64,000 bases of DNA from an uncultured Alphaproteobacteria bacterium (GCA_963785735.1 CAWAWJ010000001.1:196873-260872), one strand, 5' to 3'; positions 29,819 to 61,934 are shown, numbered from the stretch's first letter. Made by a program: numbers and translations. The notes: generated by a model from the letters alone, not told the origin.

Positions 29819-29822
29819 AGCC

Positions 29823-31847: not shown

Positions 31848-31851
31848 TGTC

Positions 31852-33213: not shown

Positions 33214-33224
33214 GTTTCCGGAGA

Positions 33225-36032: not shown

Positions 36033-37127
36033 TCAGCGGCGGGGCGGCTGGCCACTCGCGTCGAGGAGAGCCTTGATCTCGAGCGGGGTCGCGAAGCGGC
36101 CCTTGACCTCGTTGAGAAAGAAATCGAACAAGCCTTCGAGCGCATCGAGAAAACGCGCCAGGTCATTGGCGTCGCGCACATAGGGCGCGCCGCCCGGCAT
36201 CAGCGACGGGCTGTGATAGCTCAGATTGAAGATGCGTTGGCCTTGCGCCAATTGGTTCCGGACCAGGCGGATCTGCTCGGCGAGGCTGTAGCCCTCGGGC
36301 GAAAGCTGGATGCGCTCGATGAGATGGAGCCGCGAGGCCAAGGCCTTGATCTTGAACCGGTTGCCGGCTTGGGTGTCGATCCAGGGATAGAGCGATTTCG
36401 CCCGCGCCCCGAGCCAGCCGGCATGGCCGATGGTGAGCGGAATGCCGAGCCGGCGCGCGCCTTCGCCGAAGCGGAAGGGATGAAAGCCGAAGCCCGAGAA
36501 ATCCGGGCCGAAGCGGCGCGAGAGATCGATGCCCGGCAGCACGCTGACATCGACCTCGTAGCCGAGCCGGTCGATCAGCGCGAGGCTGTACGGGCCGATG
36601 CCGTAACGCCCCGCGCGGTAGACCAGGGGCTTGACGCCGAGATTGCGCTCGATCGCCCCGGTCAGCGCCTGGAGCTTCTCGCTCTCGACATGGGGCGCGA
36701 GATTGCCGGGATAGGAGTGAATATCGCTTATCTCCTCGACCTCGGGCGGGTTGACCCAGGGGTGAAGATGCGCGCCGATCAGCGCACGGTCGCCGGCGAG
36801 GAATTCGCGCAACGGGCCGTAGCCCGCGCTCTGGCTCGCCACCGCGTAATCGACGACATAGGTCGGCTTGACGCCGTAACGGTCGAAGAGGCGTTGCGCC
36901 TTTTCCTGATGCGCGAGGTTGCGCACGCTGTTCGATTCCCGGCTGAAGGGCTTCGACCAGTCGAACTCCTCCTCGGTGTCGATCACGACCTGGAGCAGCG
37001 GCTGCATAGCGGCGTCCACCGGCGCCGGCCACAGCGTCTCGCCGTGGAAGCGGAAAGACGGCGTTCCGGCGGGCGCGGGACCGGGCAAGGGTTCGCGCGC
37101 AACCGGCTGCAATGCAACGCGGCTCAT
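36033..37127 (-). CDS. Putative polysaccharide deacetylase/hydrolase-like protein (divergent, WalW-type)
   Basis: 364 aa. VVIDTEEEFDW near the N-terminus and overall resemblance, from memory, to proteins annotated WalW/polysaccharide deacetylase. Last gene of a 5-gene coupled operon. Weak call. Confidence 0.45.
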   Translation of the reverse strand: MSRVALQPVAREPLPGPAPAGTPSFRFHGETLWPAPVDAAMQPLLQVVIDTEEEFDWSKPFSRESNSVRNLAHQEKAQRLFDRYGVKPTYVVDYAVASQSAGYGPLREFLAGDRALIGAHLHPWVNPPEVEEISDIHSYPGNLAPHVESEKLQALTGAIERNLGVKPLVYRAGRYGIGPYSLALIDRLGYEVDVSVLPGIDLSRRFGPDFSGFGFHPFRFGEGARRLGIPLTIGHAGWLGARAKSLYPWIDTQAGNRFKIKALASRLHLIERIQLSPEGYSLAEQIRLVRNQLAQGQRIFNLSYHSPSLMPGGAPYVRDANDLARFLDALEGLFDFFLNEVKGRFATPLEIKALLDASGQPPRR

Positions 37128-39086: not shown

Positions 39087-40100
39087 TCACCCTGCCGCCG
39101 CGCGGCCGAGCTCGTCCGCGACCTGGGTCACGATCTGCTCGAAGCGGTAGCGGCCGTAGGATTCGCGGACCGGATCGGGCGGCGCCGTCTCCATCTCGAT
39201 CCAGAAGCGCAGCAGGCCCTGGAGCCGCGCCCACAGCAAGGGCAGGCGCAGATCGAGCGCCGCGCCTTGCGCGTAGCCGGCGAGGAAATGCCGCACGATG
39301 TCGTCATGGCGCCAGCCCAGCATCCAGCCGCTCGGCCGCCAGGAACGGAAATCCATGTCGCGGATGAACTTGGCGAGATCGAGCGTCACCGCGTCGTTCC
39401 AATCGCTCGAGATGTCGAGGCCGGCTAGCTCGCCGCCGACGATCATCAAATTCTCGGCCTTGAAATCGCCGTGATGGATGGCGCACGGAACCGGGATCGA
39501 TCCCACCAGGCCCGCCGTCCGGCGCAACACGCCGTTGCCGTGGGCGAAACTGAGATTGGCGGAGATGCTGGGCGCCTGGGGCAAGTCCTCGTCGATGCTG
39601 GCGATCAGCGCCTCCGTGCCGGTCGGGCGCGGCGGCATACGGCGCAAATCGTGGAAGCGCTTGAGCCAGGCGCCGGATTTCTCCGACCAGAATGCTATTT
39701 CCGCGGCCGAGGTCATCGGGCTCGCCAGCAACGCCGCGACCGGCCGGCCTTCGACCCATTCCATCACCAGGCAGGCATGGTCCTCGATCAGATGCAGCGC
39801 GCGCACCAGCTTCAACGGCTCCGGGCCGGATTCCGCTTGCGCGTCGAGCCAGGTGAGCACGTCATATTGCATGCGCGCCAGTTTGACGTCGGGATGGCCG
39901 CCGCGGTCGAGACAGAATTTGAGCGCGAGCGGCGTGGCATAACCCGATGCGATGCAGCGGAACAGGCGCGACACCCGGCTTACGCCCAAGGGGCCGGTGA
40001 CGCGGCATTCGCGGAACGGATGGGCGCGGCCGATGGCGCGGCCGGCGAGCAGCCGCACCACGCCTTCGGGCATCAGATCGCCGAGGGTTTCGACGCTCAT
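39087..40100 (-). CDS. Protein-kinase-fold phosphotransferase (APH/choline-kinase/WaaP-like)
   Basis: Start set at ATG 40098-40100 (ATGA overlap with the upstream GT2 stop). Catalytic loop HHGDFKAENLMI followed by GLDISSDW. Confidence 0.6.
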   Translation of the reverse strand: MSVETLGDLMPEGVVRLLAGRAIGRAHPFRECRVTGPLGVSRVSRLFRCIASGYATPLALKFCLDRGGHPDVKLARMQYDVLTWLDAQAESGPEPLKLVRALHLIEDHACLVMEWVEGRPVAALLASPMTSAAEIAFWSEKSGAWLKRFHDLRRMPPRPTGTEALIASIDEDLPQAPSISANLSFAHGNGVLRRTAGLVGSIPVPCAIHHGDFKAENLMIVGGELAGLDISSDWNDAVTLDLAKFIRDMDFRSWRPSGWMLGWRHDDIVRHFLAGYAQGAALDLRLPLLWARLQGLLRFWIEMETAPPDPVRESYGRYRFEQIVTQVADELGRAAAG

Positions 40101-41074
40101 CGCCCCAGGCTCCGCCCCAGACTCCGGGACAGCATTCGGCGCGGCGGGGTCAACAGATTGGCGAGCGGCGATCGCCCCAACAACGCCGCCTTCGCGAGCA
40201 GCCAGGAACCTTCGCCCCAAGCTCCGGCGTCGAGACGATTCTTGCCGAGGCGCTCATAACGGCGGCCGAGGATGGATCGGCGTTCGCGCGGCGAGAGCCG
40301 CCCGCCGAGATCGGCCAAATGCCGGCGCACCATGCGCAACACTTCGGCGGATTGGCGCGGCGCCAGGCCGATTGAATAGCTGTGGGGCATCCAGTGATAG
40401 ACCGCGAGTTTTTCGGGCAGCGCATGGAGGCCGCCTTCGAGCGCCAGGCGGATGAACAGATCCTGATCCTCGCCCACGGTGAGATCGGGGGCGAAGCCGC
40501 CGATGCGTTCCAGCAGATCGCGCCGCGTCAGCACCGCGGATGTCGCGACGAAGGAGGAGGCGAGCAGCGTCTTCCAGGCCTCGGTGCCCGACACCGGCGC
40601 CTGGCGGGCATAGACCGAGCTGCCCTCGGCCCCGTCGGCGGTGGTGACGCCGATGTCGCAGATCACCAGCGCCAGGCGGGGATCGGCCGCGAAGGCCGCC
40701 ACCTGCTTTTCGAGTTTTTCGGGCAGCCATTCGTCGTCGGCGTCGAGAAACGCCACCAGCTCGCCCTTGGCCGCCGAGATGCCGAGATTGCGCGCCTTGG
40801 CCGGACCGCAATTGACCGGCAGGCGGATGAGCCGGATGCGCGGATCGTTCATGGCCTCGACAAGGGACGCGCCGTCATCCGCGCTGGCGTCGTCGACGAC
40901 GATCGCTTCCCAATTCGTATAGCGTTGCGCCCCGATCGAGGCGAGCGCGCGGGCGATGGTTAACGCCGCGTCGAACATGGGCACGACGACCGACACCAGC
41001 GGCCGGTAGACCGGCGCGGCCGCCGCGGCAATAGGCCGGTTTTCCATGCTCTGCGTGCTGCTCTGCTGCGCCAT
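40097..41074 (-). CDS. Glycosyltransferase family 2
   Basis: Start set at ATG 41074 (MAQQSSTQ). VSVVVPMFDAALTIARALASIGAQRYTNWEAIVVDDASADDG and DxD FLDADDEW. Confidence 0.85.
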   Translation of the reverse strand: MAQQSSTQSMENRPIAAAAAPVYRPLVSVVVPMFDAALTIARALASIGAQRYTNWEAIVVDDASADDGASLVEAMNDPRIRLIRLPVNCGPAKARNLGISAAKGELVAFLDADDEWLPEKLEKQVAAFAADPRLALVICDIGVTTADGAEGSSVYARQAPVSGTEAWKTLLASSFVATSAVLTRRDLLERIGGFAPDLTVGEDQDLFIRLALEGGLHALPEKLAVYHWMPHSYSIGLAPRQSAEVLRMVRRHLADLGGRLSPRERRSILGRRYERLGKNRLDAGAWGEGSWLLAKAALLGRSPLANLLTPPRRMLSRSLGRSLGR

Positions 41075-41309: not shown

Positions 41310-42851
41310 ATGATCGAAGCGCCCCTGATCCCCAGCGTCGTCACCAAGATTTCGCTCGGCCAGCAGATCGCCAAGGGCGCGATCTTCATGGTGGCGCTGC
41401 GCGTCGCCTTCCGCTTCCTCGGGCTGTTGAGCTCGCTCATTTTGCTGCGCCTGCTGGCGCCGTCGGATTTCGGCATCGTCGGGCTGGCGATGGCGGCGCT
41501 GTCGATCCTCGAGGTGTTGAGCGATCTGTCGTTCCAGGCGGGCATCATCCGCATGCCCAAGCCGCGGCGCGTCCATTACGACACCGCGTGGACGCTCGGC
41601 ATATTGCGCGGCGTCGCGATGGCGATTCTGGTGGTGGCCATGTCGCCGCTCCTCGCCAAGATGGTCGACGATCCGCGCGTCATCGATCTCTCCTTCGCGC
41701 TCGCGGCCATCTCGGTGCTGCAAGGATTCGAGAATATCGGCGTGGTCGATTTCCAGCGCCATTTCGAATTCGACCGCTATTTCCGCTATCAGGTCTTCGG
41801 CAAGCTCGCCGGCGTCTGCGTCTGCGTTCCCGCGGCTTTCCTTTCGCACAGCTACTGGGCGCTCATCGCCGGCATCGCCGCGACCCGGCTGTCGACCGCG
41901 GCGGCGAGCTTCGTCGTCAGCGACTACCGCCCGCGCCTCAGCCTCGCCGCGTGGCGCGATTTGTTCAATTTCTCGAAATGGCTGCTGGTGTCGAACGTGC
42001 AGTGGATGATCGACGCCAACATCATGACCTTCATGACCGGCTACGTCGCCGGCGCGTCCTCGATCGGTCTCTATCAGGTGGCGAACCAAGTGGCCTCGCT
42101 GCCGGCGAGCGAGGTCGCCGCGCCCATCCGCCAGCCGATGTATGCCGGGCTGTCGCGCGCCGCCGACGACATGCCGGAGCTGCGCCGCCAGACGCTCGAC
42201 GGCTTGTTCATGACGCTCGCCTTGGTTGCGCCGATGTCGATCGGCATCTCGCTGATGGCTTCGCCCATCGTCGATCTGTTCTTCGGCTGGAAATGGATCG
42301 CCGCCATCCCGCTGGTCCATTTGTGCGCCCTCTACGCGCTGTGCGACGCGGTCGGCCATTTCACCCACAACGTCTACATCGTGACGCACCGGCAGCGCCG
42401 CTTCGTCGGCGTCTTCACCGTGGCGCTCGCGGTGCGCATTCCGGCGATCGTGCTGGGCGCGGTGTTCTACGGCGTCTACGGCGCGACATTCGCGCTGGTC
42501 GTCACATCCGTCTTCAACATGGTGTTGTGGTCGGTGAACATTTTTCCGCAGGTCGGGATTTCCTTCCGCGACGTCGCGCGCGGCACCTGGCGCACCGTGT
42601 TCGGCGTGCTGGTGATGGCGGTGGCCGTGATCTGGCTGAGCGATCTCTGGCCGGAGCCGCCGGGCATGCCGGCGGGCCTCTTGCGTTGCGCGGTCATCTG
42701 CGTGATCGGGGCCGCGATCCATATAGCATCCCAATTGGCCGCCTGGCGCGTCTCGGGCGAGCCGCCGGGCGCCGAGCGCCATATCCTGAAAAGCGCGCGC
42801 GTCATCGCCGTCCGTCTGGGTCTTGTCGCATCCAAGCGGGTGCCGGCATGA
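41310..42851 (+). CDS. Polysaccharide flippase (Wzx, MOP superfamily)
   Basis: 513 aa, about 12-14 TM segments. N-terminus KGAIFMVALRVAFRFLGLLSSLILLRLLAPSDFGIVGLA is typical of Wzx/RfbX-type flippases. Confidence 0.75.
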   Translation: MIEAPLIPSVVTKISLGQQIAKGAIFMVALRVAFRFLGLLSSLILLRLLAPSDFGIVGLAMAALSILEVLSDLSFQAGIIRMPKPRRVHYDTAWTLGILRGVAMAILVVAMSPLLAKMVDDPRVIDLSFALAAISVLQGFENIGVVDFQRHFEFDRYFRYQVFGKLAGVCVCVPAAFLSHSYWALIAGIAATRLSTAAASFVVSDYRPRLSLAAWRDLFNFSKWLLVSNVQWMIDANIMTFMTGYVAGASSIGLYQVANQVASLPASEVAAPIRQPMYAGLSRAADDMPELRRQTLDGLFMTLALVAPMSIGISLMASPIVDLFFGWKWIAAIPLVHLCALYALCDAVGHFTHNVYIVTHRQRRFVGVFTVALAVRIPAIVLGAVFYGVYGATFALVVTSVFNMVLWSVNIFPQVGISFRDVARGTWRTVFGVLVMAVAVIWLSDLWPEPPGMPAGLLRCAVICVIGAAIHIASQLAAWRVSGEPPGAERHILKSARVIAVRLGLVASKRVPA

Positions 42852-42890
42852 CCGGCCATTCCCCGATTCCCCGGAGCTGAGAGAACCGCC

Positions 42891-44222
42891 ATGCGTTCAA
42901 TTGCCCTCGCCATGCTGATCTTCGGGCTTCTGCCCACGGCGTTCATGTCGCCCTTCGTCAGCGTGTTGCTGTGGTCTTACATCTCCTTCGGCAGCGCCCA
43001 GCGATTGACCTGGGGCATGGCCGAGAACATTCCCTTCGCCTTGGTCGTCGGCCTCGCCGGCATCGCCGGCTGGATGATGTGCGAACGGCGCCGGCTGCCG
43101 ATGGACCGCATCACCGTGCTCCTGCTGCTCTACGTGGCGATGATCACCATTTCCACCTCCTTCGCGCTGGTGCCGGACATGGCCTGGCCGAAGTGGTGGA
43201 TCACGGTGAAGGCCTTCATCTTCGTCTTCGTCACCGCGGCGATGTTGACCAACAAGGTGCGCATCCACGCGCTCATCTGGATCATGGTCATCGCGGTCGG
43301 ATATTACGGCATCAAGGGCGGCATCTTCACGCTGATGACCGGCGGCAATTACCGCATTTTCGGCCCGGCGCAGACCATGATCGGCGACAACAACCACATC
43401 GCCTGCGCGCTGGTCGTGGTCATGCCGCTGATGAATTATCTCGGCCGGCAATCGAAGAACGAGTTATTGCGATTCGGCTCGCGCGCCGCCATGGCGCTTT
43501 GCCTGCTCTCCGTGCTGGCCTCCTATTCGCGCGGATCGTTCCTGGCGCTCATCGCCATGCTGCCCTTCCTGGTGCAGCACTCGAAGCACAAGGTCGGGGT
43601 GGCGGCCGTCGTCGTCGTTATGCTGGCCTTCTCGATCAGCTTCATGCCGACGCAATGGATCGAGCGCGTCCAAACCATCTCGACCTATCAGCAAGACTCC
43701 TCGGCCGAAGGCCGCATCCAAATATGGCGGGGGGCGTTCGACATCGCGCTCGCCCGGCCGCTTGTGGGCGGCGGCTTCATGGCGCCTTACAGCCAGGACG
43801 TGCTCGACCAATACGCGCCGGGCACCCAATCGAGGGCGGTGCATTCGATCTGGTTCGAGAATCTGGGCGAGAACGGCTTCATCGCGTTCGGCCTCTGGAT
43901 CGCGATCGCGCTCACCATGCTGCAGAATTGCCGCTACATCATCCGGCGCACCAATGGCAATTTGCAGCTCAAATGGGCGAACGATCTGGCGCATATGTCC
44001 TTCGTCGCCGTCATCGGATTCCTGGTCGGCGGCACGTTCTTGTCGCTGTCTTATTGGGACTTCTACTTCACGCTGGTCGTCGTGCTGGCGGCGACGCGGC
44101 GCATCGTCGTCGCCGAACTGGCGCCCGAGAAGCCGCGCTTCGCCCGCATGCTGGCCTCGCGTAGCGCGCCGCGGGGAGCGCTGCCGCGGCCGGGCATGGC
44201 GATGCCGGGCGAGGCGGACTAG
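42891..44222 (+). CDS. O-antigen ligase/polymerase-like membrane protein (Wzy-type; exosortase-A-associated O-glycosylation ligase family)
   Basis: 443 aa, polytopic. Central SRGSFLALIAMLPFLV.. and a periplasmic loop with RIQIWRGAFDIALARPLVGGG, as in the Wzy_C/O-antigen ligase domain. Confidence 0.75.
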   Translation: MRSIALAMLIFGLLPTAFMSPFVSVLLWSYISFGSAQRLTWGMAENIPFALVVGLAGIAGWMMCERRRLPMDRITVLLLLYVAMITISTSFALVPDMAWPKWWITVKAFIFVFVTAAMLTNKVRIHALIWIMVIAVGYYGIKGGIFTLMTGGNYRIFGPAQTMIGDNNHIACALVVVMPLMNYLGRQSKNELLRFGSRAAMALCLLSVLASYSRGSFLALIAMLPFLVQHSKHKVGVAAVVVVMLAFSISFMPTQWIERVQTISTYQQDSSAEGRIQIWRGAFDIALARPLVGGGFMAPYSQDVLDQYAPGTQSRAVHSIWFENLGENGFIAFGLWIAIALTMLQNCRYIIRRTNGNLQLKWANDLAHMSFVAVIGFLVGGTFLSLSYWDFYFTLVVVLAATRRIVVAELAPEKPRFARMLASRSAPRGALPRPGMAMPGEAD

Positions 44223-44250
44223 GCCGCCGGAAAAATAGGGAGAGACAAGG

Positions 44251-44487
44251 ATGGACGCAGCATTTTTCTTCTTCTCGCTCGCCGGCGTGCTGATGGTGGT
44301 GCATTGGCTGGTGACCAACGACAAAGCCGGCAACCACGGCAAGACCCGCGGCATCTTCGCCATGCGCGAACCCGAGGACATCGCCGCGGAAACCGAAATC
44401 GCCGCCCGGGGCAAGTTCAGCGCCCGGCGGACGGTCAAGACGGCGAAACCGGCCGCCAAGCCGGCTGGCCACCGGCGCCCGTTCTGA
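44251..44487 (+). CDS. Small single-pass membrane protein (hypothetical)
   Basis: 78 aa. One N-terminal TM helix (FFFFSLAGVLMVVHWLV) and a basic tail. Fills the gap between the wzy-like gene and the ATP-grasp gene. Purine-rich gggagagacaagg precedes the ATG. Confidence 0.35.
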   Translation: MDAAFFFFSLAGVLMVVHWLVTNDKAGNHGKTRGIFAMREPEDIAAETEIAARGKFSARRTVKTAKPAAKPAGHRRPF

Positions 44488-44525
44488 CCGTCCGTGAAAT
44501 TCGGGAAAGCATAGAGAGACAGCCG

Positions 44526-46349
44526 ATGGGCCTCGTGACGCCGAAAGGGGAAGAAATCCAGGACCAGCGCCCGCGCAAGGCGCTCGTCATCGGCGACGAC
44601 ACGCGGAGTTTTCTCTCGACCGTGCGCTCCCTGGCCAAACGGCATATCGAGGTGCACGCCGCCCCGTTCGATTTCCGCTCCCCGGCCTTGACGTCGCGCC
44701 ACATTACGCGCCTTTGCTATCTCCCCTATTACCTCGGCGACGGGGCCGAGTGGCTGGCCGCGGTCGAGGAACTTTTCCGCCGCGAGCGCTACGATCTCGT
44801 CATCCCGTGCGACGAACGCACCTTGCTGCCGCTCCATCATCACCGCGAGCGTCTCGCAAAGCTGTGCCGCCTGGCCATTCCCAATGAACGGGCCATGGCG
44901 GTTTTCTTCGACAAGAATGCCACGCGCGAACTGGCGCGGTCGCTCGGCGTTCCGGTGGCTCAAGGACGGCTGATCGCGGCGGCGGACACGGCCCAGGCCA
45001 TCATCGGCGAAGCCGGGTTGCCTTTGGCCGTGAAGCCGTTGCAATCCTACGCCCTGGGCGGTCTCCACGCGCGCGACAAGGTCGTGATCGTGGACGACGC
45101 GGAATCCTTGTCGCGGATTTTGCCTTCCCTGCGCGGCGGCGGCCATTTGTTCGAGGCTTTTTTCGCCGGCGACGGCGTCGGGGTTTCGGTGCTGGCGTCG
45201 CGGGGAAAGGTGCTGCAGGCCTTCCAGCACCGCCGGGTGCATGAATGGAACGGAAACGGCTATTATCGGGTGAGCGCGCCGCTCTCGGCGCCGCTCCTCG
45301 AGGCGACCGGAAAAATCATCGCGGCCTCGGACTATACCGGCGTCGCCATGTTCGAATTCAAGGTCAACCAAGAGTCGGGCGCGTGGGTTCTGCTCGAGGT
45401 CAATGCCCGCCCCTGGGGCTCGATGCCATTGCCGGTGGGCATGGGCGTGGATTTTCCCTATTTCTGGCACCAGCTGCTGGTGGAAAATATTGAAACGCCG
45501 GCGCGCGCCTATCGCACCGGCGTCTATGCCCGCAACTTCGTTCCCGATTTCCGTCAGCTCGTCACCCGCGTCAGGGCGCTGAAAGGCCGCCCGGCGGATC
45601 AAGCGCGGCTTCTGCTGCGCGAGACCCTGGAGCATGGCCGCCTTTTCATTGGCCGCGAATTCCACGATGTCCTGACGTTCGACGACCCGCGTCCCGGCTT
45701 CGCCGAGCTCGGCGGCATCTTCCGGAAAGAGTGGCCGCGTCTTTCGGCCCGGCTTCCCGGATTTGCCGCGCGAACCCGGCGGCGCGACCGCGCGGCGCTG
45801 ATGCGGGCGTTGCGCCAAGCCGGCGGCAACGCTTTCAGCATCGTCTTCGTGTGCCAGGGCAATATCTGCCGCAGCCCGTTTGCCGCCGCGGCGCTCGAGC
45901 GCCGGATCACCTCCGAGCGGCCGGGCTTGCGCGCTGCATCGGCGGGAATGATCCCCCGGAACGGGGCGGTTTCGCCGCCCGCCGCCATCGAAGCGGCATT
46001 GGAGAACGGGATCAATCTGGCGCCGCACCGCTCCCGCCACCTCTCGCGCGAGCAGGCCGAGAACGCGGATTTGCTGGTGGTCTTCGACCAGAAAAATCTG
46101 GATTGGTTGAGGAACCGCTATCCCGACCTGGCCACGCCGGTTATACGGCTCGGCAGCTTCGAGGATGACGGGGCGCCCGACATCGCCGATCCGGATGGAC
46201 GGGATATCGGCGTTTTCCGCGACACCTATGCCCGGATCGAGACCGCCATCGGCGGCTTGCTGGAGGCGGTCTATGGCGCCGGAACCGCCGAGTCTTCCGG
46301 CGACGGAGCCGTGCATCTCCAGCGCTACCGGCGGCCCCGCGCGGCGTGA
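44526..46349 (+). CDS. ATP-grasp enzyme fused to a low-molecular-weight protein-tyrosine phosphatase (Wzb-like)
   Basis: In-frame part of ORF 44304..46349, start ATG 44526. N-terminal ~350 aa show ATP-grasp features (DKNATRELARSLGVPV.., LPLAVKP, LLEVNARPWGS). The C-terminal ~150 aa carry the LMW-PTP P-loop VCQGNICRS (45849-45875) and the Asp loop IADPDG. Confidence 0.8.
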   Translation: MGLVTPKGEEIQDQRPRKALVIGDDTRSFLSTVRSLAKRHIEVHAAPFDFRSPALTSRHITRLCYLPYYLGDGAEWLAAVEELFRRERYDLVIPCDERTLLPLHHHRERLAKLCRLAIPNERAMAVFFDKNATRELARSLGVPVAQGRLIAAADTAQAIIGEAGLPLAVKPLQSYALGGLHARDKVVIVDDAESLSRILPSLRGGGHLFEAFFAGDGVGVSVLASRGKVLQAFQHRRVHEWNGNGYYRVSAPLSAPLLEATGKIIAASDYTGVAMFEFKVNQESGAWVLLEVNARPWGSMPLPVGMGVDFPYFWHQLLVENIETPARAYRTGVYARNFVPDFRQLVTRVRALKGRPADQARLLLRETLEHGRLFIGREFHDVLTFDDPRPGFAELGGIFRKEWPRLSARLPGFAARTRRRDRAALMRALRQAGGNAFSIVFVCQGNICRSPFAAAALERRITSERPGLRAASAGMIPRNGAVSPPAAIEAALENGINLAPHRSRHLSREQAENADLLVVFDQKNLDWLRNRYPDLATPVIRLGSFEDDGAPDIADPDGRDIGVFRDTYARIETAIGGLLEAVYGAGTAESSGDGAVHLQRYRRPRAA

Positions 46350-46363
46350 GCGGGATCGGGCCC

Positions 46364-47464
46364 ATGAACAAGGCGACGTCACTCTATCTCGATGCCGTGC
46401 GGTTCCTGGCGGCGCTGCTGGTGTTCATCTCCCATGCCTGCGGCCAGCGCATCAGCGGCGGTCTCTTCTGGCAGCTCGGCTCCTATGGGCCGGAAGCCGT
46501 GACGGTCTTCTTCGTGCTGTCGGGTTTTGTCATCGCGCACGCCACGGCGACGCGCGAAACCTCGCCCGCCTCCTACGCCGTGGCGCGGCTTTCCCGGATT
46601 TATTCGGTGGCCTTGCCGGCCTTGATTCTCACCGCCGCGGCCGACGCCACGGCGCGCGCCATCGATCCCGGCCTTTATACCGAAGCCTATGGCTATGCCG
46701 CTTCCGGCCAGCCCTGGCAGTATTTGCTGTCGGCGCTGTTTCTCAACCGGATTTGGATGCTGGAGGCGAACCCGGGCTCGAACTGGTCCTATTGGTCGCT
46801 CGGCTACGAGGTTTGGTATTATGCGATCTTCGCCGCGCTGACATTCCTCGCCGGCCGGCGCCGGGCGATCGCGGTGGCCGCCCTTCTCGGCTTCGTCGGC
46901 CCCAGCATCGCCGCCATGTTCCCGCTCTGGCTCTTGGGCGTGGCGTGTTACCGGATTTGCGCCGCGGCGCGGATCGGCCGGGTGGCCGGCCTGGCGCTGT
47001 TTCTGTTCTCGGTCGGGGCCTGGGCACTTTGCGAAATCGTCGCGTTGCAACCGGGCGGCCTATTGCTGACCGATCCCCGGTGGCTCGCGATCCTGCAACG
47101 GCCCGAATTGGTGCGGGATTATATCGCCGGATTCGCCTTCGCCGGCACGCTGGTGGGATTTCGCGCCGCCTCCGGCTGGATCGAGCCCTATACCGCCGGA
47201 TCGTGGCGTTTCCTGCGATGGATCGCGGGCGCGACCTTCTCGCTTTATCTCTTTCACGAACCGTTGCTACGCTTGCTGGCGACGGTAAGCCCGTTTCCGC
47301 CCGCGTCATGGGCGGGACGCGGGCTGGTGCTCGGGGGGACATTCGCGCTCGTCCTGGCGCTGGCGCAGGTGACCGAACGGCGCAAGGGCGCCTGGCGCCG
47401 CGCGCTGGCCGCAATCATGCCGTGGGGCGCGGGCGCAAGCGTGGCCGCGGCCCGGACCCCGTGA
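46364..47464 (+). CDS. Acyltransferase family 3 (polysaccharide O-acyl/acetyltransferase)
   Basis: MNKATSLYLDAVRFLAALLVFISHA is the typical acyltransferase_3 N-terminus, with about 10 TM segments. Alternative GTG start at 46346 overlaps the upstream stop. Confidence 0.8.
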   Translation: MNKATSLYLDAVRFLAALLVFISHACGQRISGGLFWQLGSYGPEAVTVFFVLSGFVIAHATATRETSPASYAVARLSRIYSVALPALILTAAADATARAIDPGLYTEAYGYAASGQPWQYLLSALFLNRIWMLEANPGSNWSYWSLGYEVWYYAIFAALTFLAGRRRAIAVAALLGFVGPSIAAMFPLWLLGVACYRICAAARIGRVAGLALFLFSVGAWALCEIVALQPGGLLLTDPRWLAILQRPELVRDYIAGFAFAGTLVGFRAASGWIEPYTAGSWRFLRWIAGATFSLYLFHEPLLRLLATVSPFPPASWAGRGLVLGGTFALVLALAQVTERRKGAWRRALAAIMPWGAGASVAAARTP

Positions 47465-47470
47465 GCGAGG

Positions 47471-48589
47471 ATGAAAGACATGGCTCATCCAGCCGATAAC
47501 CCGGTCTCGCCGCGAGCCGCCGAGCTCGTCAGCGTCGTCATCCCGACCTATAACCGCGCCCGTCTGGTGTGTGTCGCGGTCGACAGCGTGCTGGCCCAGA
47601 CCCACCCGCAAGTCGAAATCATCGTCGTCGATGACGGTTCGACCGACGACACGCCGGAGAGGCTCGCGCGTTACGGCGGTCGTATCCGGGTTCTGCGGCA
47701 AGACAATGCCGGGGTCTGCGCCGCCCGCAACAACGGCATGGCGCGGGCCACCGGCCAATTCATCGCCTTGCTCGATTCCGACGACCGCTTCCTGCCCTGG
47801 AAACTCGCGGCCCAGCTCGCCGCTTTCCGCGCCGTGCCGGAGATGCAGCTGAGCTGGACCGACGCCGCCGTCATCGATCTCGGCGGAAGCCTCATTCACG
47901 CCCGGTCGCTGCGGCGGTTTTATCCCGGCAGTTTTTCCTATCTGCCCGAATCGGCGCTGTTCGAATCGGCCCTCGACCTGCGCGAGACGGCGCCCGATCT
48001 CGACGTGCCGGAGGAAAAAATTCCGCTGCGCATCGGCGATTTCTCGCGCAAGATCTATCTGGGAAATTTCTTCAACATGTCGACGGTGATGTTCCGCCGC
48101 GAATTGCTGGCGCGATGCGGCGGCTTCGACGTCGCGGTCGGCAATGCCGGCGAGGATTATGAATTTTACAGCCGCCTGGCGCAATGCGGCCCCGCCGGGC
48201 TGATCGATCTGAGCGCGGCGCAATGTTGCGCCGGCGGTTCGCTCAGCCGGCTGCGCACGCACACGGCGCTGGCCAACCTCGCCACCATCGCCAAGATCGA
48301 CCGCATGCTGGAAGGACGCCCGCATCTGCCGGCTTCCATCATCCGGCGCCGGCGGCGCGATTCCCACGCCTGGGCGGGGCAAGCTTTGTTCGACGACGAC
48401 CGGCCGGGGGAAGCGAGGATTCATCTCGCGCGCGCCTTGAGGATGGGCTGCGCCAATCCCCGGGTTTTCGCCTATTGGCTGTTGTCTTTCCTGCCGGTCG
48501 CCGCCGTTCGATCCATGCGGGGATTTTATCACGGGATGAAGCGGGCGCGGCCTTCCCCGCCCCCGGCGCCGGCCGCTTCAGCGGGGTAA
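47471..48589 (+). CDS. Glycosyltransferase family 2
   Basis: VSVVIPTYNRARLVCVAVDSVLAQTHPQVEIIVVDDGSTDDT and DxD LLDSDDRF. Confidence 0.85.
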   Translation: MKDMAHPADNPVSPRAAELVSVVIPTYNRARLVCVAVDSVLAQTHPQVEIIVVDDGSTDDTPERLARYGGRIRVLRQDNAGVCAARNNGMARATGQFIALLDSDDRFLPWKLAAQLAAFRAVPEMQLSWTDAAVIDLGGSLIHARSLRRFYPGSFSYLPESALFESALDLRETAPDLDVPEEKIPLRIGDFSRKIYLGNFFNMSTVMFRRELLARCGGFDVAVGNAGEDYEFYSRLAQCGPAGLIDLSAAQCCAGGSLSRLRTHTALANLATIAKIDRMLEGRPHLPASIIRRRRRDSHAWAGQALFDDDRPGEARIHLARALRMGCANPRVFAYWLLSFLPVAAVRSMRGFYHGMKRARPSPPPAPAASAG

Positions 48590-50569: not shown

Positions 50570-52126
50570 CTACGCGCCCGGCGCGGCCGATTGGACGCCG
50601 TCGAGATAGGCGGGGAGCGGCGTCATGGCCCGCAGGAAATCTTCCAGGGTTTGCTCGGGCGCGGCGCGGCCGCTCTGCCGGGGCGCGGCCAAGGCGACGA
50701 AAGCCGCAAGGGCGGGCCGGCCCAGGATCACGTCGCGCGCCAGACGCAGCTTGGCCTCGAGGCCGCTCGATGTGACGGCGCCGTCGACCACGTAGAAATA
50801 CCAGACCAGCCGCGCGCGCTGTCCGGAATGGATCTCGGCCGAGGCCAGCACCGGCGGATAGCCCGGAATGTCGATGCGGGCCGAGCCCAGGGTCGAGCGC
50901 ACCCAGATATCGTCGTCGACCACGCGGTTCTGGCTGCGCACCAGATTGTTGTGGCGGCCATAGATGTCGTAGAGCGCGACGTAACGCTCGATGGTTGCGC
51001 CATCGCCCTCGCCTTCACGCGTGAAGGAATCGCGGAATTCCCGGTCGGGCTCCATGATGACCGGCTGCCAATCGTCCTTGGCGCCGGAAGCGGCCCGCCA
51101 CGGCGGAGCCACATCGGGCGCCGCGGCGCGGGCGAGATCGAGCGTATGCGCGGGCTGGTCGAGCCGGGCCAGATAGGCGGGCCCAAGCGCCGCCAGCGCC
51201 AGCGCGACCGCCACCGCCACCGCCGGCGATTTGCGCGACGGCGCCGATACGGGAGACGGCGCGGGCGGCGCGGCTTGCGCCAGGCCCTTGTCGGCAAAGC
51301 GCATGCCGATGACGATCTGCAGCAGCAACACGGCGGTGAAGAAACCCCAGCCATAGACGATGTGGTCGGCTTCGACCGCGGTGACGTCGTTGGTCAGATG
51401 CGCCAGATAGATGATGCCGAAGGCGCGCAAGCCGTTGGCGAGGATCGGCACCACCAGCGACGCCAGGATGAAGGCCACGCGCTTCCACCACAGGCGATAG
51501 ACCATGAGCGCGAAGAAAACGCCGAAGGCGATCGAGGCGACGAGGAAGCGCAAGCCGGCGCAGGCCTCGGCGACGATGAAATCGCCCTCGGGGATCGAAA
51601 TCATGATGCCGTCGGAATAGACCGGTACGTTGAAGGCCTGGAGCATATCGACGGCGAAACGCGCGGTCAGATCCTGGAGATGCGGCACCAGATATTCGCC
51701 GCTCGGCACCAGCAGATAAAGATAGAGCAACGGCCCGAACATCAGGCGATAAACCCGCCACCCCAGCGCCGTCAGCAGAATCACCTGCACCATGGTGATG
51801 AAGACGAATTGCTGGAATTCGAGCACGCCCAGCACCGCCATCAGCAGCCAGGCGAAGGACAGCAAGGGCAGCAACACGAGCGCGCGAAAATCCGGGCTGG
51901 GAGTTTCGCCCGCGAGAAAGCGGCGGCGGTCCCAGATCATGTAGAGCGCGATCGGCAGAACCAGGAAACAATGGTTGTATGTCGGCGAGACCAGCCAGAC
52001 GCGCCACGCGCCGGCGATCTCGCGCCAGAAAACGAAGCCCAGCACCAGGCATGCCAATCCGAGGACCGGCGCGAGCGCCCGCCAGGGGCGCGAAGGCGCG
52101 GCACCGTGAATCGCCGGGGCGCTCAT
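50570..52126 (-). CDS. xrtA: Exosortase A (XrtA) fused to an EpsI-family domain
   Basis: In-frame part of ORF 50570..52639. Start ATG 52124-52126 (ATGA overlap). Exosortase catalytic motifs AEACAGLRFL (Cys), ANGLRAFGI (Arg) and EADHIVYGWGF (His) in a polytopic core. The C-terminal ~200 aa are a periplasmic EpsI-like domain. Confidence 0.85.
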   Translation of the reverse strand: MSAPAIHGAAPSRPWRALAPVLGLACLVLGFVFWREIAGAWRVWLVSPTYNHCFLVLPIALYMIWDRRRFLAGETPSPDFRALVLLPLLSFAWLLMAVLGVLEFQQFVFITMVQVILLTALGWRVYRLMFGPLLYLYLLVPSGEYLVPHLQDLTARFAVDMLQAFNVPVYSDGIMISIPEGDFIVAEACAGLRFLVASIAFGVFFALMVYRLWWKRVAFILASLVVPILANGLRAFGIIYLAHLTNDVTAVEADHIVYGWGFFTAVLLLQIVIGMRFADKGLAQAAPPAPSPVSAPSRKSPAVAVAVALALAALGPAYLARLDQPAHTLDLARAAAPDVAPPWRAASGAKDDWQPVIMEPDREFRDSFTREGEGDGATIERYVALYDIYGRHNNLVRSQNRVVDDDIWVRSTLGSARIDIPGYPPVLASAEIHSGQRARLVWYFYVVDGAVTSSGLEAKLRLARDVILGRPALAAFVALAAPRQSGRAAPEQTLEDFLRAMTPLPAYLDGVQSAAPGA

Positions 52127-53373: not shown

Positions 53374-53472
53374 GAGTCTATTCCCGCCCCCAGTTTGCGC
53401 CCGCGGGGCTGAATCCTTTGCTAAGAAACCGGGCAAAGGACTGAAATAGAAGGGATTTTTCCCGGGACCCGG

Positions 53473-54370: not shown

Positions 54371-56023
54371 CTAGAAGACCTTGCGCAAGGAGAAGACCAG
54401 CGAATTGCGGATAACGCTGGTGTTGGGGTTCTGCGTGTCGGAATAGATGAAGGAGTAGGAGACGTCGCCGAACAGGGTGTCGCCGAACTGGTGGCTGAAC
54501 GAGACCAGATTGTAGAAGGAGTGCGCGTGCTCGAAGCCGCGCGCGTAATAGCTGGTCAGGAAATAGAGGGTGTTCAATTCGTTCAGCGAGCGGCTCCAAT
54601 TGGCGGAGACGCCGCTATACTGGTCGCTCGGCCCCAGGCCGGTGAGCGAGGTCAATTCTTCGTGGTTGACGCTCAGGACAAAACGGTCGGTGGCGAGCTG
54701 GGTGACGATGCTGGCCGAATAATTCCGCAGCCGGTCGATGTCGTTCTGCAGGCTCAATTCGTTGTTGGTGAGCGAAAGCGGCAGGCCGGTGGTGGCGCTG
54801 ACGGTCGTGCCGTTCGGCCCCAGCACGGCGCCGTTGAGGTTGCCCAGGAGCACCTGCTGCGGCGTGGATGTCGATTGCGAGTAATCCGCGTAGAGGGTGG
54901 TGAGCGGCGTGATCGAATAGCGCAAATTGCCGAGGAAGGAATTGCTGCCGTCGCGGCGGCCGTAATTGAGCGTGAGCTCGGAATCCTGGTTGGGTTCGTA
55001 GACGATGCCGCCATACCAGGTCGGCCCGTTCAGGTTCGAGACCTGCCGAGTCTCGTAATCGATCGTCTGCCAGCCGCCCGCCCCCACCAGCGCGAAATTG
55101 CTGCGCAGATGGAACCGGAGTTCGTCGATGGCGAGGGTCTGCCGGTTCGAGCCGACGCCGTTGGTGACGCTGGTTTGCTGGCCATCGAGCTTGAGGCTGT
55201 TGCTGACGAATTTTCCGGCGTCGCCCGAATCGAGGGTGTCGCGCAATTCCTGATAGGTCGCATCGCCGATCGCCAAGGTGACGTTGGAGCCGCCGGTGGT
55301 GCCGGTGACGCCGGTGTCGGTGATGCTGGTATTGCCGCGAAACAGGGTCTCGCCGATGGTGTAGCGCAGCTCGTTGTCGCCCACGCTGTCGAAATGGGTA
55401 CGCATCACCGGGCTGAGATCGCCGGCGTAGCTCGCGACGCGGTTATTGGCGGTGAGATCGTTCGTCGGCAGGCCGCCGAAAGAGCCGTCGCGCGAGCTTT
55501 GGGACGCCGAGGCGCTGGCGTCGAGATCGAGCGTGTCGTCCGGGATCAGCCGGGCGACGGCTTCGAGAAACAAATTTTGGTCGATATGATTCAAATCGGG
55601 CGCCGCGAAATAGCGCTGGATGGAGGGCTGATAGTCGAGATTGGCGGTCAGCCGCGGCGAATCGCCGCCGATATAGATGCCGGGCGAGACCGTGGTGATG
55701 ACGTCGGCGACGCGGCCGCCGGACTGGGCGTTGCGGACGTTGTCGGTGAACTCCACCGAACCGCTGATGCGGGGAGAGATCAGCCACAACGGGGCGCCGG
55801 GCGGAAGATGTTGCCTGAGGTCGTCGGAATTCTGACGCAGCAGCGGATCGTAGAACGGCGGCGTCGGCCCGTTGCCCTGATCGTCGAGCGGACCTAGCGC
55901 GAATTGGGCCGAGGCCCGCCCAGCCGCGAGGACGATTGCGGCTGAGAGGAAGGCGGCCAGCGTACGGGTGATTTGCATTCTGCGCTCGACACGGGCTTCT
56001 GCATGGGATGCGGGATGGATCAA
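54371..56023 (-). CDS. PEP-CTERM-system-associated outer-membrane beta-barrel protein
   Basis: Signal peptide MQITRTLAAFLSAAIVLAAGRASA (alternative start ATG 55978). Long Ser/Thr/Gly/Asn/Tyr-rich body with alternating pattern and a C-terminal ..SLVFSLRKVF ending in Phe, typical of OM barrels. Confidence 0.6.
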   Translation of the reverse strand: MIHPASHAEARVERRMQITRTLAAFLSAAIVLAAGRASAQFALGPLDDQGNGPTPPFYDPLLRQNSDDLRQHLPPGAPLWLISPRISGSVEFTDNVRNAQSGGRVADVITTVSPGIYIGGDSPRLTANLDYQPSIQRYFAAPDLNHIDQNLFLEAVARLIPDDTLDLDASASASQSSRDGSFGGLPTNDLTANNRVASYAGDLSPVMRTHFDSVGDNELRYTIGETLFRGNTSITDTGVTGTTGGSNVTLAIGDATYQELRDTLDSGDAGKFVSNSLKLDGQQTSVTNGVGSNRQTLAIDELRFHLRSNFALVGAGGWQTIDYETRQVSNLNGPTWYGGIVYEPNQDSELTLNYGRRDGSNSFLGNLRYSITPLTTLYADYSQSTSTPQQVLLGNLNGAVLGPNGTTVSATTGLPLSLTNNELSLQNDIDRLRNYSASIVTQLATDRFVLSVNHEELTSLTGLGPSDQYSGVSANWSRSLNELNTLYFLTSYYARGFEHAHSFYNLVSFSHQFGDTLFGDVSYSFIYSDTQNPNTSVIRNSLVFSLRKVF

Positions 56024-57063
56024 TAGTCGGAATAGGAGCCGAACTGGTCGGCCGCCGAGGTGCGGATCTTGTTCAAGAGGAGGCTGATGATCGGGCAGGC
56101 GCTGACCAGACCCACTGCGGTCTCGACCTCTTCCTGCTGGGTGCGGTCGGCCTCGACCACCATCACGATCTGGCCGACCAATCCGGCGAGCACCGCCGGG
56201 TCGCTGGAGCCGAGAACCGAGGGCGCATCGAAAATGATGAAGCGGTCGGAATAGCGCTGCGTCATCTCGGTGAACATCGCGCGGGTTCGCTTGCTCGACA
56301 ACAGCTCGGGCGAGCGGATGTTGGGCGTGCCCGCCGGCATGACCGTGAGATTCGGCAAATTGGTGCGCAACACCACGTCGGAGAAATCGACCTCGGGGTT
56401 GGACAGGAGGTCGGTCAGGCCGTAATTGGCCGGAATGCCCATCATGTCCTGCATGGCGTGATACTTGGTGTCGAGATCGATCAGCAGGACCTTGAGATCC
56501 TGCTCGGTGGCGATGGAAAGGGCGAGATTGATGGCGGCGAAGGTCTTGCCCTCGCGCGGCCGGGCCGAGGTCACCATGATGACGCGGTTCTTGTTCATCG
56601 CGTCGTCGGCGGCCTCTTCCATGTAATTGCCGACCACCTGGCGCTTGACCATGCGGAACTCCTCGACCACGCGCGAGCGCTTCGCCGAGGGAATGGTGAT
56701 GCCGTGGCGCGCCAGGCTGTTGCGGTCGATCGAGACCTGGCGGCTCACCGCCGGCGCGGGCGCCGTTTCCTCGACGAATTCCTCTTCATAGGCGGGCGCG
56801 GCCCGGAGCTGCGGCGCGGGGCCGCGATGGCGCGGGGCGGCGGGCCTGGCGGCCATCACCGGCTCGCGATAGGCGGATCCTGCCGGCGCGCTTTGCGGCG
56901 CGTAAGCGGCGGGGGTGGCCTGCTGCGGAACATAGGCATCGTTGACCGGCGGCGCCGGGGGCGGCGCGTAGGATTCGGCCGGCGGCGCGGCCGAAGCCTG
57001 GCCGCGGCCGCGCAGATGGGCGGCGGCGCGTTCGATCAGTTTGCGCGAGGTTTCGTCGATCAT
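56020..57063 (-). CDS. Exopolysaccharide tyrosine autokinase (BY-kinase catalytic subunit, EpsG-type)
   Basis: 347 aa. Walker A VTSARPREGKTFAAINLA, Walker A' LLIDLD, Walker B IIFDAPS, C-terminal tyrosines ..FGSYSDY. The N-terminus has a Pro/Ala/Tyr-rich segment. Confidence 0.8.
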   Translation of the reverse strand: MIDETSRKLIERAAAHLRGRGQASAAPPAESYAPPPAPPVNDAYVPQQATPAAYAPQSAPAGSAYREPVMAARPAAPRHRGPAPQLRAAPAYEEEFVEETAPAPAVSRQVSIDRNSLARHGITIPSAKRSRVVEEFRMVKRQVVGNYMEEAADDAMNKNRVIMVTSARPREGKTFAAINLALSIATEQDLKVLLIDLDTKYHAMQDMMGIPANYGLTDLLSNPEVDFSDVVLRTNLPNLTVMPAGTPNIRSPELLSSKRTRAMFTEMTQRYSDRFIIFDAPSVLGSSDPAVLAGLVGQIVMVVEADRTQQEEVETAVGLVSACPIISLLLNKIRTSAADQFGSYSDY

Positions 57064-61208: not shown

Positions 61209-61934
61209 GTGTTCATCGTCACCGCCATGGCCGGGATTTTGCTCGCGCTCGGACGGCGCAAGCGACTCGGGCTCGGGCTCGCGTTTCTGAGCCTACTCTG
61301 CTTGTACGCCTTCGCCACGCCCTATGTGTCGACCCGGCTTCTCCAGATTCTGGAAGCGCAGGTTCCCGACACCACGCGCAATTTCGACGACGCCCAGGCG
61401 ATCGTCGTGCTGTCGGGCACCATCCATCACGGCGACAACGACAAGGTGCCGGACCAGTTGGGCCTGCTGACGCTGGAACGGGTGGCGCGCGCGGCCGAGA
61501 TCGAGCGCGCGCACCCGCTGCCGATCGTGGTTTCGGGCGGCAAGGTGGGCAACAGCCGGGAGACCATGGCGGTATTGATGGAACGCGCGCTCCAGCAGGA
61601 TTTCGGCGTGTCCGTGCGCTGGCGCGAGGAGCAATCCGCGACCACCTTCGAGAATGCGCGCTTCGTGGCGCGACTGCTGGGCGAGGCCAAAATCCACACC
61701 GTGATCCTGGTGACCCAGCCCTGGCACATGCCGCGCGCGCTCTGGGCCTTCGAGCATGAGGGGCTCGACGTCATCCCGGCGCCGACCATCCGGACATATC
61801 TCAATCTCGGCACCCCGTTCGACGCGAATCTGTACCTGCCGCAATCGGATGCGCTCACCGACAGTTTCTACGCCCTCCATGAAATGCTCGGGCTGGCCTA
61901 TTACAAATTCTATTACGGGCAGGTTCATGACTAG
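61209..61934 (+). CDS. YdcF/ElyC-family protein (DUF218)
   Basis: AIVVLSG......PIVVSGGK.....ETMAVLMERAL.....EEQSATTFENARF.....HTVILVTQPWHMPRA is the DUF218 pattern. Start uncertain (TTG 61059, GTG 61209 or ATG 61227). Confidence 0.7.
   Translation: MFIVTAMAGILLALGRRKRLGLGLAFLSLLCLYAFATPYVSTRLLQILEAQVPDTTRNFDDAQAIVVLSGTIHHGDNDKVPDQLGLLTLERVARAAEIERAHPLPIVVSGGKVGNSRETMAVLMERALQQDFGVSVRWREEQSATTFENARFVARLLGEAKIHTVILVTQPWHMPRALWAFEHEGLDVIPAPTIRTYLNLGTPFDANLYLPQSDALTDSFYALHEMLGLAYYKFYYGQVHD

Follow-up and report, generated by a model that had tools for sequence, protein, structure and literature searches.

The gene at positions 44526..46349 (+) of a 64,000-nucleotide stretch of DNA from an uncultured alphaproteobacterium (GCA_963785735.1, CAWAWJ010000001.1:196873-260872), the whole of which is called the window below and from whose first nucleotide all positions are counted, encodes a protein of 607 residues in which an ATP-grasp ligase is followed by a conserved helical extension and by a low-molecular-weight protein tyrosine phosphatase (LMW-PTP) domain. 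The activities of both domains can be predicted with high confidence. The fusion would be a cytoplasmic bifunctional accessory enzyme of an XrtA/PEP-CTERM surface-glycan system, and it probably belongs to a tailoring module that also comprises a deacetylase-like partner with the fold of carbohydrate esterase family 4 (CE4). As for the phosphatase half, we tentatively propose that it acts on the bacterial tyrosine kinase (BY-kinase) of the same system or on the substrates of that kinase. The conserved gene module around the fusion had not been pointed out before; the fusion itself was noticed in a reading of this DNA made from the sequence alone, referred to here as the original prediction.

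The gene was delineated from the listing of open reading frames (ORFs), from Pfam, NCBIfam and homologue searches, and from an AlphaFold2 (AF2) model compared with known structures by Foldseek. Its frame is open from a TTG at 44304 to position 46349 (+), and the ATG at 44526, which yields 607 residues and a stop codon, is the likely start, since a 95% identical database homologue (P0001) is also 607 residues long, alignments of homologues begin near residues 13-18, and a conserved small ORF fills the space upstream (44251-44487). The G+C content at third codon positions is 0.78 in this frame, which fits coding in a 66% G+C genome. An antisense ORF of 972 amino acids (43464-46382 (-)) covers the whole gene; it failed the third-position G+C filter and is probably a high-GC artefact and not a gene. 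A cluster of antisense ORFs matching it is present in 14 related loci. Altogether, 88 related loci were collected (80 metagenomic, three from genomes and five via protein look-ups), with flanks fetched to 10 kb. The single ORF of the original prediction is not split by a frameshift: the ATP-grasp and phosphatase halves share one frame in 66 of the 67 related loci in which this could be judged. On these grounds, and with more than 1,200 database proteins of the same kind, an assembly artefact joining two genes through a sequencing error was rejected. A scan of the window sequence for promoters and terminators returned nothing above chance.

The phosphatase domain extends over residues 437-590 (45834..46295 (+)) and is supported by Pfam, by PDB profile matches and by conservation. 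The Pfam LMWPc model (PF01451) matches residues 439-579 with E=3e-23 and 83 bits, against a cut-off of 23.2, and is covered end to end (positions 1-144 of 144). The catalytic P-loop, C443-Q-G-N-I-C-R449-S450 (45852-45875 (+), in the motif VCQGNICRS at residues 442-450), and the general-acid pair D555-P556 (46188-46193 (+), in IADPDG at residues 553-558) are both complete, as had been claimed from the sequence, and C443, R449, S450 and P556 are found in all of 121 homologues, D555 in 120 of them. Judged from these features, the C-terminal domain should be competent for catalysis, as a Cys/Arg/Asp phosphatase of phosphotyrosine type.

Its place among the enzymes of this fold was sought in several ways. 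A profile of 111 family members compared with the PDB gives YwlE at 1e-23, AmsI at 6e-22, Wzb at 8e-21 and ArsC at 7e-10, and a single-sequence PDB search also returns YwlE as the best match to the phosphatase domain (2e-17); on the fusion, the ArsC models of NCBIfam reach E=1.5e-4 versus 1.5e-14 for Wzb. Identity with an ArsC arsenate reductase was rejected, its scores being 13 orders of magnitude worse (1e-23 versus 7e-10 in the PDB profile search) and the downstream cysteines being absent. Indeed, the only cysteines of the domain are C443 and C448, so that the ArsC redox pair is lacking, and the choice of LMW-PTP over ArsC in the original prediction stands. An arginine phosphatase of the YwlE type was likewise rejected, although YwlE is the top PDB match. 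The threonine at position X4 of the YwlE P-loop (CTGNTCRS) is a determinant of arginine specificity, whereas the equivalent position 447 is occupied in the 121 sequences by Ile (113), Val (7) or Thr (1), and hardly any of 234 fused proteins has a residue other than Ile or Val there. The isoleucine at X4, in place of the threonine of YwlE, is the basis on which the domain was assigned to the phosphotyrosine type. The domain does not qualify as a Wzb orthologue, since the equivalog model NF007520 scores only 54.6 bits against a cut-off of 243. The residue that follows DP in the 234 fused proteins is variable (D 70, Y 50, V 34, I 31, F 20, W 6); about one third of them, Nitrospira and Vibrio members included, keep DP[Y/F/W].

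The ATP-grasp domain, residues 15-350 (44568..45575 (+)), was recognised by conservation in 121 sequences, by Foldseek and by profile matches to the PDB. Its identification is weak by sequence and firm by the modelled fold. CPSase_L_D2 of Pfam scores 28.8 bits against a cut-off of 19.8, over only 39 residues of the fusion, and ATPgrasp_Ter, at 28.9 bits, falls just below its cut-off of 29.1; homologues of the fusion do exceed a Pfam ATP-grasp cut-off. The residues expected to bind ATP, announced in the original prediction, are present without exception: K170 (codon 45033-45035, in LPLAVKP at residues 165-171), E210, and the E291-x-N293-x-R295 motif (45396-45410, in LLEVNARPWGS at residues 289-299) occur in 121 of the 121 aligned fusion sequences. 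The AF2 model of the fusion, built from 111 sequences, has a mean predicted local distance difference test score (pLDDT) of 92.2 and a predicted template modelling score (pTM) of 0.89. In Foldseek comparisons of residues ~18-350, the best match is 2pn1 (E=3.9e-17, template modelling score 0.79), followed by biotin carboxylases, the L-amino-acid ligases 3vot and 4wd3, PylC and PurK; the 50 matches listed are ATP-grasp structures with E values from 4e-17 to 5e-15 (all <=4.7e-15), and neither RimK nor tubulin-tyrosine ligase (TTL) is among them. Profile matches of this half to the PDB include pyruvate carboxylase, 2pn1 and Ddl, and the TupA-like ATP-grasp family of Pfam gives no match to the fusion at E<=1. 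By the modelled fold, then, the nearest structural relatives of the ATP-grasp half are small-molecule ligases and carboxylases, none of them close enough for a substrate to be transferred.

Between the two domains, residues 351-436 (45576..45833 (+)) form a conserved helical extension, delimited by its pLDDT, by its invariant residues and by its retention in relatives that have the ATP-grasp domain only. In the model, helices span residues 356-432 with block pLDDT values of 89-97. D381, D387, P390 and E394 are invariant in the family, E369 and E378 nearly so. The segment had been described as a linker of ~90 residues, a description that does not fit a conserved and confidently folded region. 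It accompanies the ATP-grasp domain even in relatives that lack a phosphatase, and we consider it part of the ligase and not a spacer.

The fusion belongs to a large, uncurated family and is not a rarity. A word-indexed search yielded 1,207 homologues (90%-identity clusters) at E<=1e-5, the best 120 of which are 49-95% identical to the query, all full-length and of the same architecture. When the ligase half only (residues 1-437) was compared exhaustively by phmmer with 1.84 billion cluster representatives, 668 of them matched at E<=1e-30 (50%-identity clusters); of the 148 best among the newly found representatives, 117 include the phosphatase domain and ~30 do not, and 12 of the 117 exceed 700 residues, the length of forms that also bear a FemAB-like domain. 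Two relatives, P0165 and P0191, both on short contigs, are true stand-alone ATP-grasp proteins; a third candidate, P0124, was rejected as such because it is a frameshifted fusion. The family is found in Alphaproteobacteria (Stellaceae, Telmatospirillum, Rhizomicrobium, Acetobacteraceae), in Gammaproteobacteria (Acidihalobacter, Vibrio) and in Nitrospirota. On archaeal plasmids of Haloprofundus, only the ATP-grasp half has a counterpart (29% identity over query residues 18-411), which adjoins a gene for a 'metal-dependent hydrolase'. A contig scan with the generic P-loop pattern GNICRSP[FVM]A found fusions in three of 80 loci. No NCBIfam family covers the fusion. The Vibrio member is named 'ATP-grasp domain-containing protein' in RefSeq, and the automatic name given by JGI is 'protein-tyrosine-phosphatase/predicted ATP-grasp superfamily ATP-dependent carboligase'. 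The original prediction knew of no characterised case of the domain combination, and no paper describing an ATP-grasp plus LMW-PTP architecture was found in the literature. With its more than 1,200 clusters, the architecture is common in sequence databases and was already auto-named by JGI.

The most consistent neighbour of the fusion is a protein of ~335-365 residues, with an N-terminal VVxDTEEEFDW motif and no Pfam match, whose gene is adjacent (<=300 bp) and co-directional in 24 of the 33 loci with at least 2.5 kb on both sides. The window copy (364 residues, 36033..37127 (-)), recognised by synteny of its orthologues and by AF2 and Foldseek, lies 7.4 kb from the fusion on the opposite strand and has the motifs VIDTEEEFDW, GAHLHPW, YRAGRYG and LSYHSPS; its orthologues next to fusions elsewhere are 42-48% identical to it (47-48% in L081 and L083-L085). 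Searches of Pfam, NCBIfam and PDB sequences, made with this protein alone and with a 41-sequence profile, gave no match, and NCBI names some members 'polysaccharide deacetylase family protein'. Its AF2 model (pLDDT 89.6) has CE4 deacetylases as top Foldseek matches (best E=1.6e-8), among them 3rxz, 3qbu (HP0310), 3s6o, PdaC and ArnD. It has neither a signal peptide nor a transmembrane start and is therefore probably cytoplasmic.

Other genes recur around the fusion as well. A gene for a FemAB-like transferase of the tandem-GNAT kind (PF13480) lies within 2.5 kb in 13 of the same 33 loci, and in some members the FemAB-like domain is itself fused, N-terminally (P0085-type) or C-terminally (P0049-type), the ATP-grasp-phosphatase unit always being contiguous in these forms. 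TIGR03097-like proteins are encoded near the fusion in 19 loci, and the ten that were tested all pass the cut-off (216-490 bits versus 188); a flippase is found nearby in 16 related loci. A set of family 2 glycosyltransferases (GT2, 'cluster 2') was rejected as a conserved partner, for it merged generic GT2 paralogues. The trio of deacetylase, FemAB-like protein and fusion is conserved as far as Nitrospira sp. RSF3 (29% identity), where the order is FemAB-like, DegT aminotransferase, GT2, PF01522 deacetylase, fusion, two GDSL, Wzy_C and GT4, the deacetylase directly upstream of the fusion being a canonical PF01522 member. On plas1 of Vibrio alfacsensis (33% identity), a PF13480 GNAT, a flippase, the fusion and an overlapping gene for the CE4-like partner stand within a complete XrtA system. 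An XrtA marker is present in the fetched flanks of 19 of the 33 loci with at least 2.5 kb on both sides, of 13 of 23 with 5 kb and of 8 of 14 with 9 kb; the association of the fusion with XrtA is thus recurrent, not universal. In ten related loci (L083, L001, L121, L146, L153 and five others), the fusion and the deacetylase lie within 10 kb of a Wzm/Wzt ATP-binding cassette (ABC) transporter, often with sulfotransferase-like genes and a TIGR03097 ligase-like gene nearby. Such gene content hints that, in some lineages, the decorated glycan may come from an ABC-dependent route and then be ligated to an acceptor.

These observations suggest the following scheme. The ATP-grasp half would be a carboxylate-amine ligase, which uses ATP to form an acyl-phosphate that is attacked by an amine to give an amide. 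The deacetylase would unmask the amine of an amino sugar on a nucleotide- or lipid-linked repeat unit, the ATP-grasp domain would N-acylate it with an amino acid or an organic acid, and, where a FemAB-like enzyme is present, the substituent could be extended or capped. The unit would afterwards be flipped by Wzx or by an ABC transporter and be handled by the TIGR03097 Wzy/ligase-like protein. The phosphatase half, for its part, would act on the XrtA-associated BY-kinase (56020-57063) or on proteins phosphorylated by it, and the fusion would in this way couple the decoration of repeat units to the phosphorylation cycle that gates polymer assembly. It is from the data above that we infer the substrates of both domains, the order of the steps and the kinase as target. 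N-acylation of a de-N-acetylated amino sugar is favoured because deacetylases unmask amines and FemAB-like enzymes transfer acyl or aminoacyl groups to amines. The amidation of a uronic acid, which the original prediction had offered as an example, finds no specific support: the conserved partner is a deacetylase, and no uronate-forming gene occurs among the profile-scanned ORFs of the window, several small ORFs being unscanned and three near the 3' end matching no family. A related locus, L168, encodes a UDP-glucose/GDP-mannose dehydrogenase.

That the kinase of the locus is the likely substrate of the phosphatase was already part of the original prediction, and the results lend this view a measure of support. 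The kinase is indeed encoded in the same locus, the phosphatase domain is of the phosphotyrosine type, and the window contains no LMWPc-coding region besides the fusion. The same holds for a complete 174-kb plasmid of Vibrio alfacsensis, which carries an XrtA system with an autokinase at 95278-96093 and in which a six-frame scan with hidden Markov models found no LMWPc region besides the fusion. XrtA systems carry a tyrosine autokinase to which, to our knowledge, no cognate phosphatase has been assigned, and the fusion is an obvious candidate for this function. A gene table of the XrtA loci of Rubrivivax, Thauera and Rhodoferax likewise lists the tyrosine kinase and no LMW-PTP (PMC3684757).

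Several observations weigh against the kinase, and the proposal, which involves a protein that is not a Wzb orthologue, keeps its inferential character. A classical wzb gene adjoins wzc, and the fusion gene is not next to the kinase gene; no BY-kinase, Wzz or Wza was found within 10 kb of the fusion in the 88 related loci. This last point has little weight, since 10 kb roughly equals the separation of the two genes in the window (9.7 kb) and falls short of that in Vibrio (25 kb). In ten loci the module stands beside a Wzm/Wzt ABC transporter, and we know of no use of BY-kinases in that type of pathway. In L081, the genes around a triple fusion are unrelated ones, phosphonate genes among them, and sugar genes are lacking in the vicinity. 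The window itself contains no FemAB-like gene. An aromatic residue after DP (DPY/DPF), which walls the phosphotyrosine pocket and is typical of such enzymes without strictly defining them, is absent from the window fusion, whose sequence is DPD, and its own clade has Asp, Val or Ile at this place. We had at one point taken this absence as a sign of a non-tyrosine substrate, an idea dropped because about a third of the wider family keeps Y, F or W, so that it is a feature of the clade and not of the family. Finally, near-obligate fusion to an enzyme, modelled with pTM 0.89, would suit a pair of steps carried out on one substrate better than it would suit a regulator.

The main alternative, built on this last point, leaves the BY-kinase out altogether: the ATP-grasp domain would join a phosphorylated building block, such as a phospho-amino alcohol, a phospho-amino acid or phosphoglycerate, to a sugar, and the LMW-PTP-fold domain would then remove the phosphate, which would make the decoration irreversible. 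We hold this to be possible but doubtful. Fusion of the halves holds for 66 of 67 loci, and the model of the two domains is a confident one (pTM 0.89); the conserved neighbours are tailoring enzymes and not a kinase; and the module is also found with ABC transporters and at sites away from any kinase. There is also a direct precedent in Campylobacter jejuni HS:2, where Cj1438C ligates serinol-phosphate or ethanolamine-phosphate and Cj1435 carries out the dephosphorylation (PMC11800379); that phosphatase, however, is of the HAD type and the ligase is TupA-like, and no such Pfam match is seen here at E<=1. The presence of an APH-family gene (39087-40220) in the same run as the fused phosphatase, in the window and in close relatives, could matter for such a scheme, but it is limited to those relatives, and no gene for a phosphorylated donor is conserved across the module. 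Moreover, enzymes of the LMW-PTP fold act on aryl phosphates, phospho-arginine or arsenate and are not known to hydrolyse alkyl phosphate esters, and the P-loop isoleucine and the DP[Y/F/W] of one third of the members resemble ordinary phosphotyrosine enzymes. We are slightly more reserved about the narrower claim that the LMW-PTP-fold half is not a protein phosphatase and performs the second step of a ligate-then-dephosphorylate glycan decoration, in which a phosphorylated acid or amine would first be joined to a de-N-acetylated sugar by the ATP-grasp domain. If this were correct, no earlier enzyme of the LMW-PTP fold would have been shown to act on a glycan-bound or small-molecule phosphate ester, and the fusion, with its CE4-like and FemAB-like partners, would define a previously unrecognised glycan-tailoring pathway across several phyla.

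The phosphatase could also serve as a phosphotyrosine phosphatase for a protein other than the kinase, namely its own ligase, a partner enzyme, or a tyrosine-phosphorylated sugar dehydrogenase or glycosyltransferase, and so be a local regulator of the tailoring module. Its phosphotyrosine-type features, the fusion and the conserved module agree with this, as does the fact that BY-kinases phosphorylate further biosynthetic enzymes besides themselves; sequence data do not distinguish this possibility, which we think unlikely, from dephosphorylation of the kinase, and no candidate site of phosphorylation or partner in interaction emerged from the analysis. Distinctly less probable is a ligase that tails a protein in the manner of RimK or TTL, with the C-terminal tyrosine tail of the kinase or a PEP-CTERM protein as target and the phosphatase acting on the same protein. 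Protein tailing is known for some ATP-grasp enzymes, the C-terminus of the kinase reads GSYSDY, and the FemAB-like partners transfer aminoacyl groups; yet the structural relatives act on small molecules, none of the 50 Foldseek matches listed is RimK or TTL, the neighbour conserved most strongly is a sugar deacetylase, and the module sits among glycosyltransferases and flippases. An opposing pair, in which the ATP-grasp half would phosphorylate a metabolite or a sugar and the fused domain would reverse the reaction, is suggested by PPIP5K, an ATP-grasp kinase with a phosphatase domain (PMC11836120). It seems very improbable in our case, as the phosphatase of PPIP5K has a different fold, the E-x-N-x-R motif and the fold match the carboxylate-activating ligase/carboxylase branch, and the deacetylase and FemAB partners suit amide chemistry. 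There is next to no likelihood, lastly, that the protein is an artefact of two joined genes or that its C-terminal domain is of the ArsC or YwlE type. YwlE is the top single PDB match, and the 'stand-alone' relative P0124 exists as a separate gene call, but the latter is itself a frameshifted fusion, the halves are in frame in 66 of 67 loci, the ArsC cysteines are absent, and the P-loop has Ile instead of the Thr of YwlE.

Our preferred reading, a ligase coupled to the phosphorylation cycle of the BY-kinase, concerns a locus that can be described in some detail. Housekeeping genes occupy 1-28 kb of the window, and from 28.4 kb on it holds a complete XrtA/PEP-CTERM exopolysaccharide system, whose markers are PrsK/R/T, TIGR03013, 03006, 03087, 03007, 03018, 03027, 03016 and 03097. 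TIGR03019 (FemAB), TIGR03015 (ATPase) and TIGR03108 (amidotransferase) were not seen in the 64 kb, nor was any FemAB-like sequence. The TIGR03013-type priming transferase, PrsK, PrsR and PrsT lie at 28403-36011. On the far side of the fusion, an XrtA fused to EpsI (50570..52120 (-); TIGR03109 288.8 bits versus 208, TIGR02914 88 bits) is followed by a TIGR03087 glycosyltransferase (52123-53436), the TIGR03006 deacetylase (53473-54360), the TIGR03016 outer-membrane protein (54371-56023), the XrtA-associated tyrosine autokinase (56020..57063 (-); TIGR03018 222 bits versus a cut-off of 230.65, C-terminal GSYSDY), a chain-length determinant (57060-58637) and an export protein (58668-59426). The XrtA-EpsI ORF is listed as 50570-52639 (-) and overlaps the TIGR03087 gene by ~500 nucleotides, so that its real start is probably near 52120 and the upstream part untranslated; XrtA and EpsI are encoded as one protein also in L167 and L085. 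No TIGR03019 gene stands between the TIGR03006 and TIGR03087 genes (52123-54360 (-)), the place where the Vibrio plasmid has one.

The fusion gene itself is part of a co-directional run (41310-48589) that begins with a flippase of the MOP family (Wzx-like, 41310..42851 (+)) and continues with a putative O-glycosylation ligase or Wzy-like protein, exosortase A-associated (42891..44222 (+); TIGR03097 400 bits versus 188). Between the latter and the fusion lies the small ORF of 78 residues (44251..44487 (+)), with an N-terminal hydrophobic stretch (MDAAFFFFSLAGVLMVVHWLV...), a Lys/Ala/Pro-rich tail and a GGGAGAG sequence ahead that resembles a ribosome-binding site. It is conserved at the same position, with 76-96% identity, in L086-L089 and in L167, where it was called as a gene, and it probably encodes a real small membrane protein. 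Downstream, the start of a membrane O-acyltransferase gene (Acyltransferase_3, 46346..47464 (+); PF01757 E=4.6e-17) overlaps the stop codon of the fusion by 4 nucleotides, and a GT2 gene follows (47471..48589 (+)). L167 has a 79% identical fusion homologue in the same gene arrangement, with a syntenic GT2 gene at 11015-12103 of that locus and no Acyltransferase_3 at the corresponding position. The APH-family phosphotransferase (39087-40220 (-); PF01636 E=1.2e-7) lies between a methyltransferase and a GT2 gene and is conserved only in the closest relatives, L087 and L167. Beside the export genes, 60034-61152 (+) matches PF14907 ('uncharacterised nucleotidyltransferase') with E=1.6e-50; a pair made up of an HprK-related kinase and a nucleotidyltransferase is encoded on the Vibrio XrtA plasmid. 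Of the two ORFs further on, 61756-63105 (+), of 449 residues, has no Pfam or NCBIfam match, and 63119-63937 (-), of 272 residues, has no match in a scan against Pfam only.

Many environmental and wastewater bacteria owe the formation of flocs and biofilms to XrtA/PEP-CTERM systems. From the module of CE4-like protein, fusion, FemAB-like protein and TIGR03097 protein, one would predict a decoration attached by an amide bond, either to the polymer or to the glycan carried by PEP-CTERM proteins. As the family comprises hundreds of 50%-identity clusters, the characterisation of a single member would annotate thousands of genes; should the phosphatase turn out to act on the product of the ligase, the substrate range of the LMW-PTP fold would be widened.

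The fusion can be compared with several known systems. With the LMW-PTPs of the Wzb/AmsI/Etp type, which partner BY-kinases in Wzy-dependent polysaccharide systems, it shares the C-X5-R-S P-loop, the DP general-acid loop and the SAG and H-x-S motifs, as well as its location in a polysaccharide locus containing a BY-kinase. Those enzymes, however, are stand-alone proteins of ~150 residues, whereas the domain of the window sits behind a 436-residue ATP-grasp ligase, away from the kinase, and lacks, like its clade, the aromatic residue after DP. YwlE, the arginine phosphatase of Bacillus and Geobacillus, has a DPxG loop similar to that of the fusion, but its P-loop is CTGNTCRS instead of C-Q-G-N-I-C-R-S. 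On the ligase side, uncharacterised ATP-grasp proteins described as 'carbamoyl-phosphate-synthase-like' (2pn1, PRK12767 and the predicted carboligases of the COG3919 type) have in common with the fusion the three-subdomain ATP-grasp fold, the ATP-binding lysine corresponding to K170 and the E-x-N-x-R motif for metal and acyl-phosphate; the identity of these and more distant ATP-grasp relatives to the fusion is 14-20%, and the conserved helical extension and the fused phosphatase are features of its own. In Campylobacter jejuni HS:2, the Cj1438/Cj1435 pair likewise combines an ATP-grasp ligase that decorates a surface polysaccharide with a phosphatase of the pathway (PMC11800379), except that the two are separate proteins, TupA-like and HAD-type respectively, that a uronic acid is amidated, and that there is no deacetylase or FemAB partner. 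A parallel in organisation exists with the canonical XrtA pair, TIGR03006 and TIGR03019, which follows the same logic of a CE4 deacetylase beside a FemAB protein and coexists with the fusion module on the Vibrio plasmid; the module differs from it in having a separate, Pfam-invisible CE4 family and, in addition, the ATP-grasp-phosphatase fusion.

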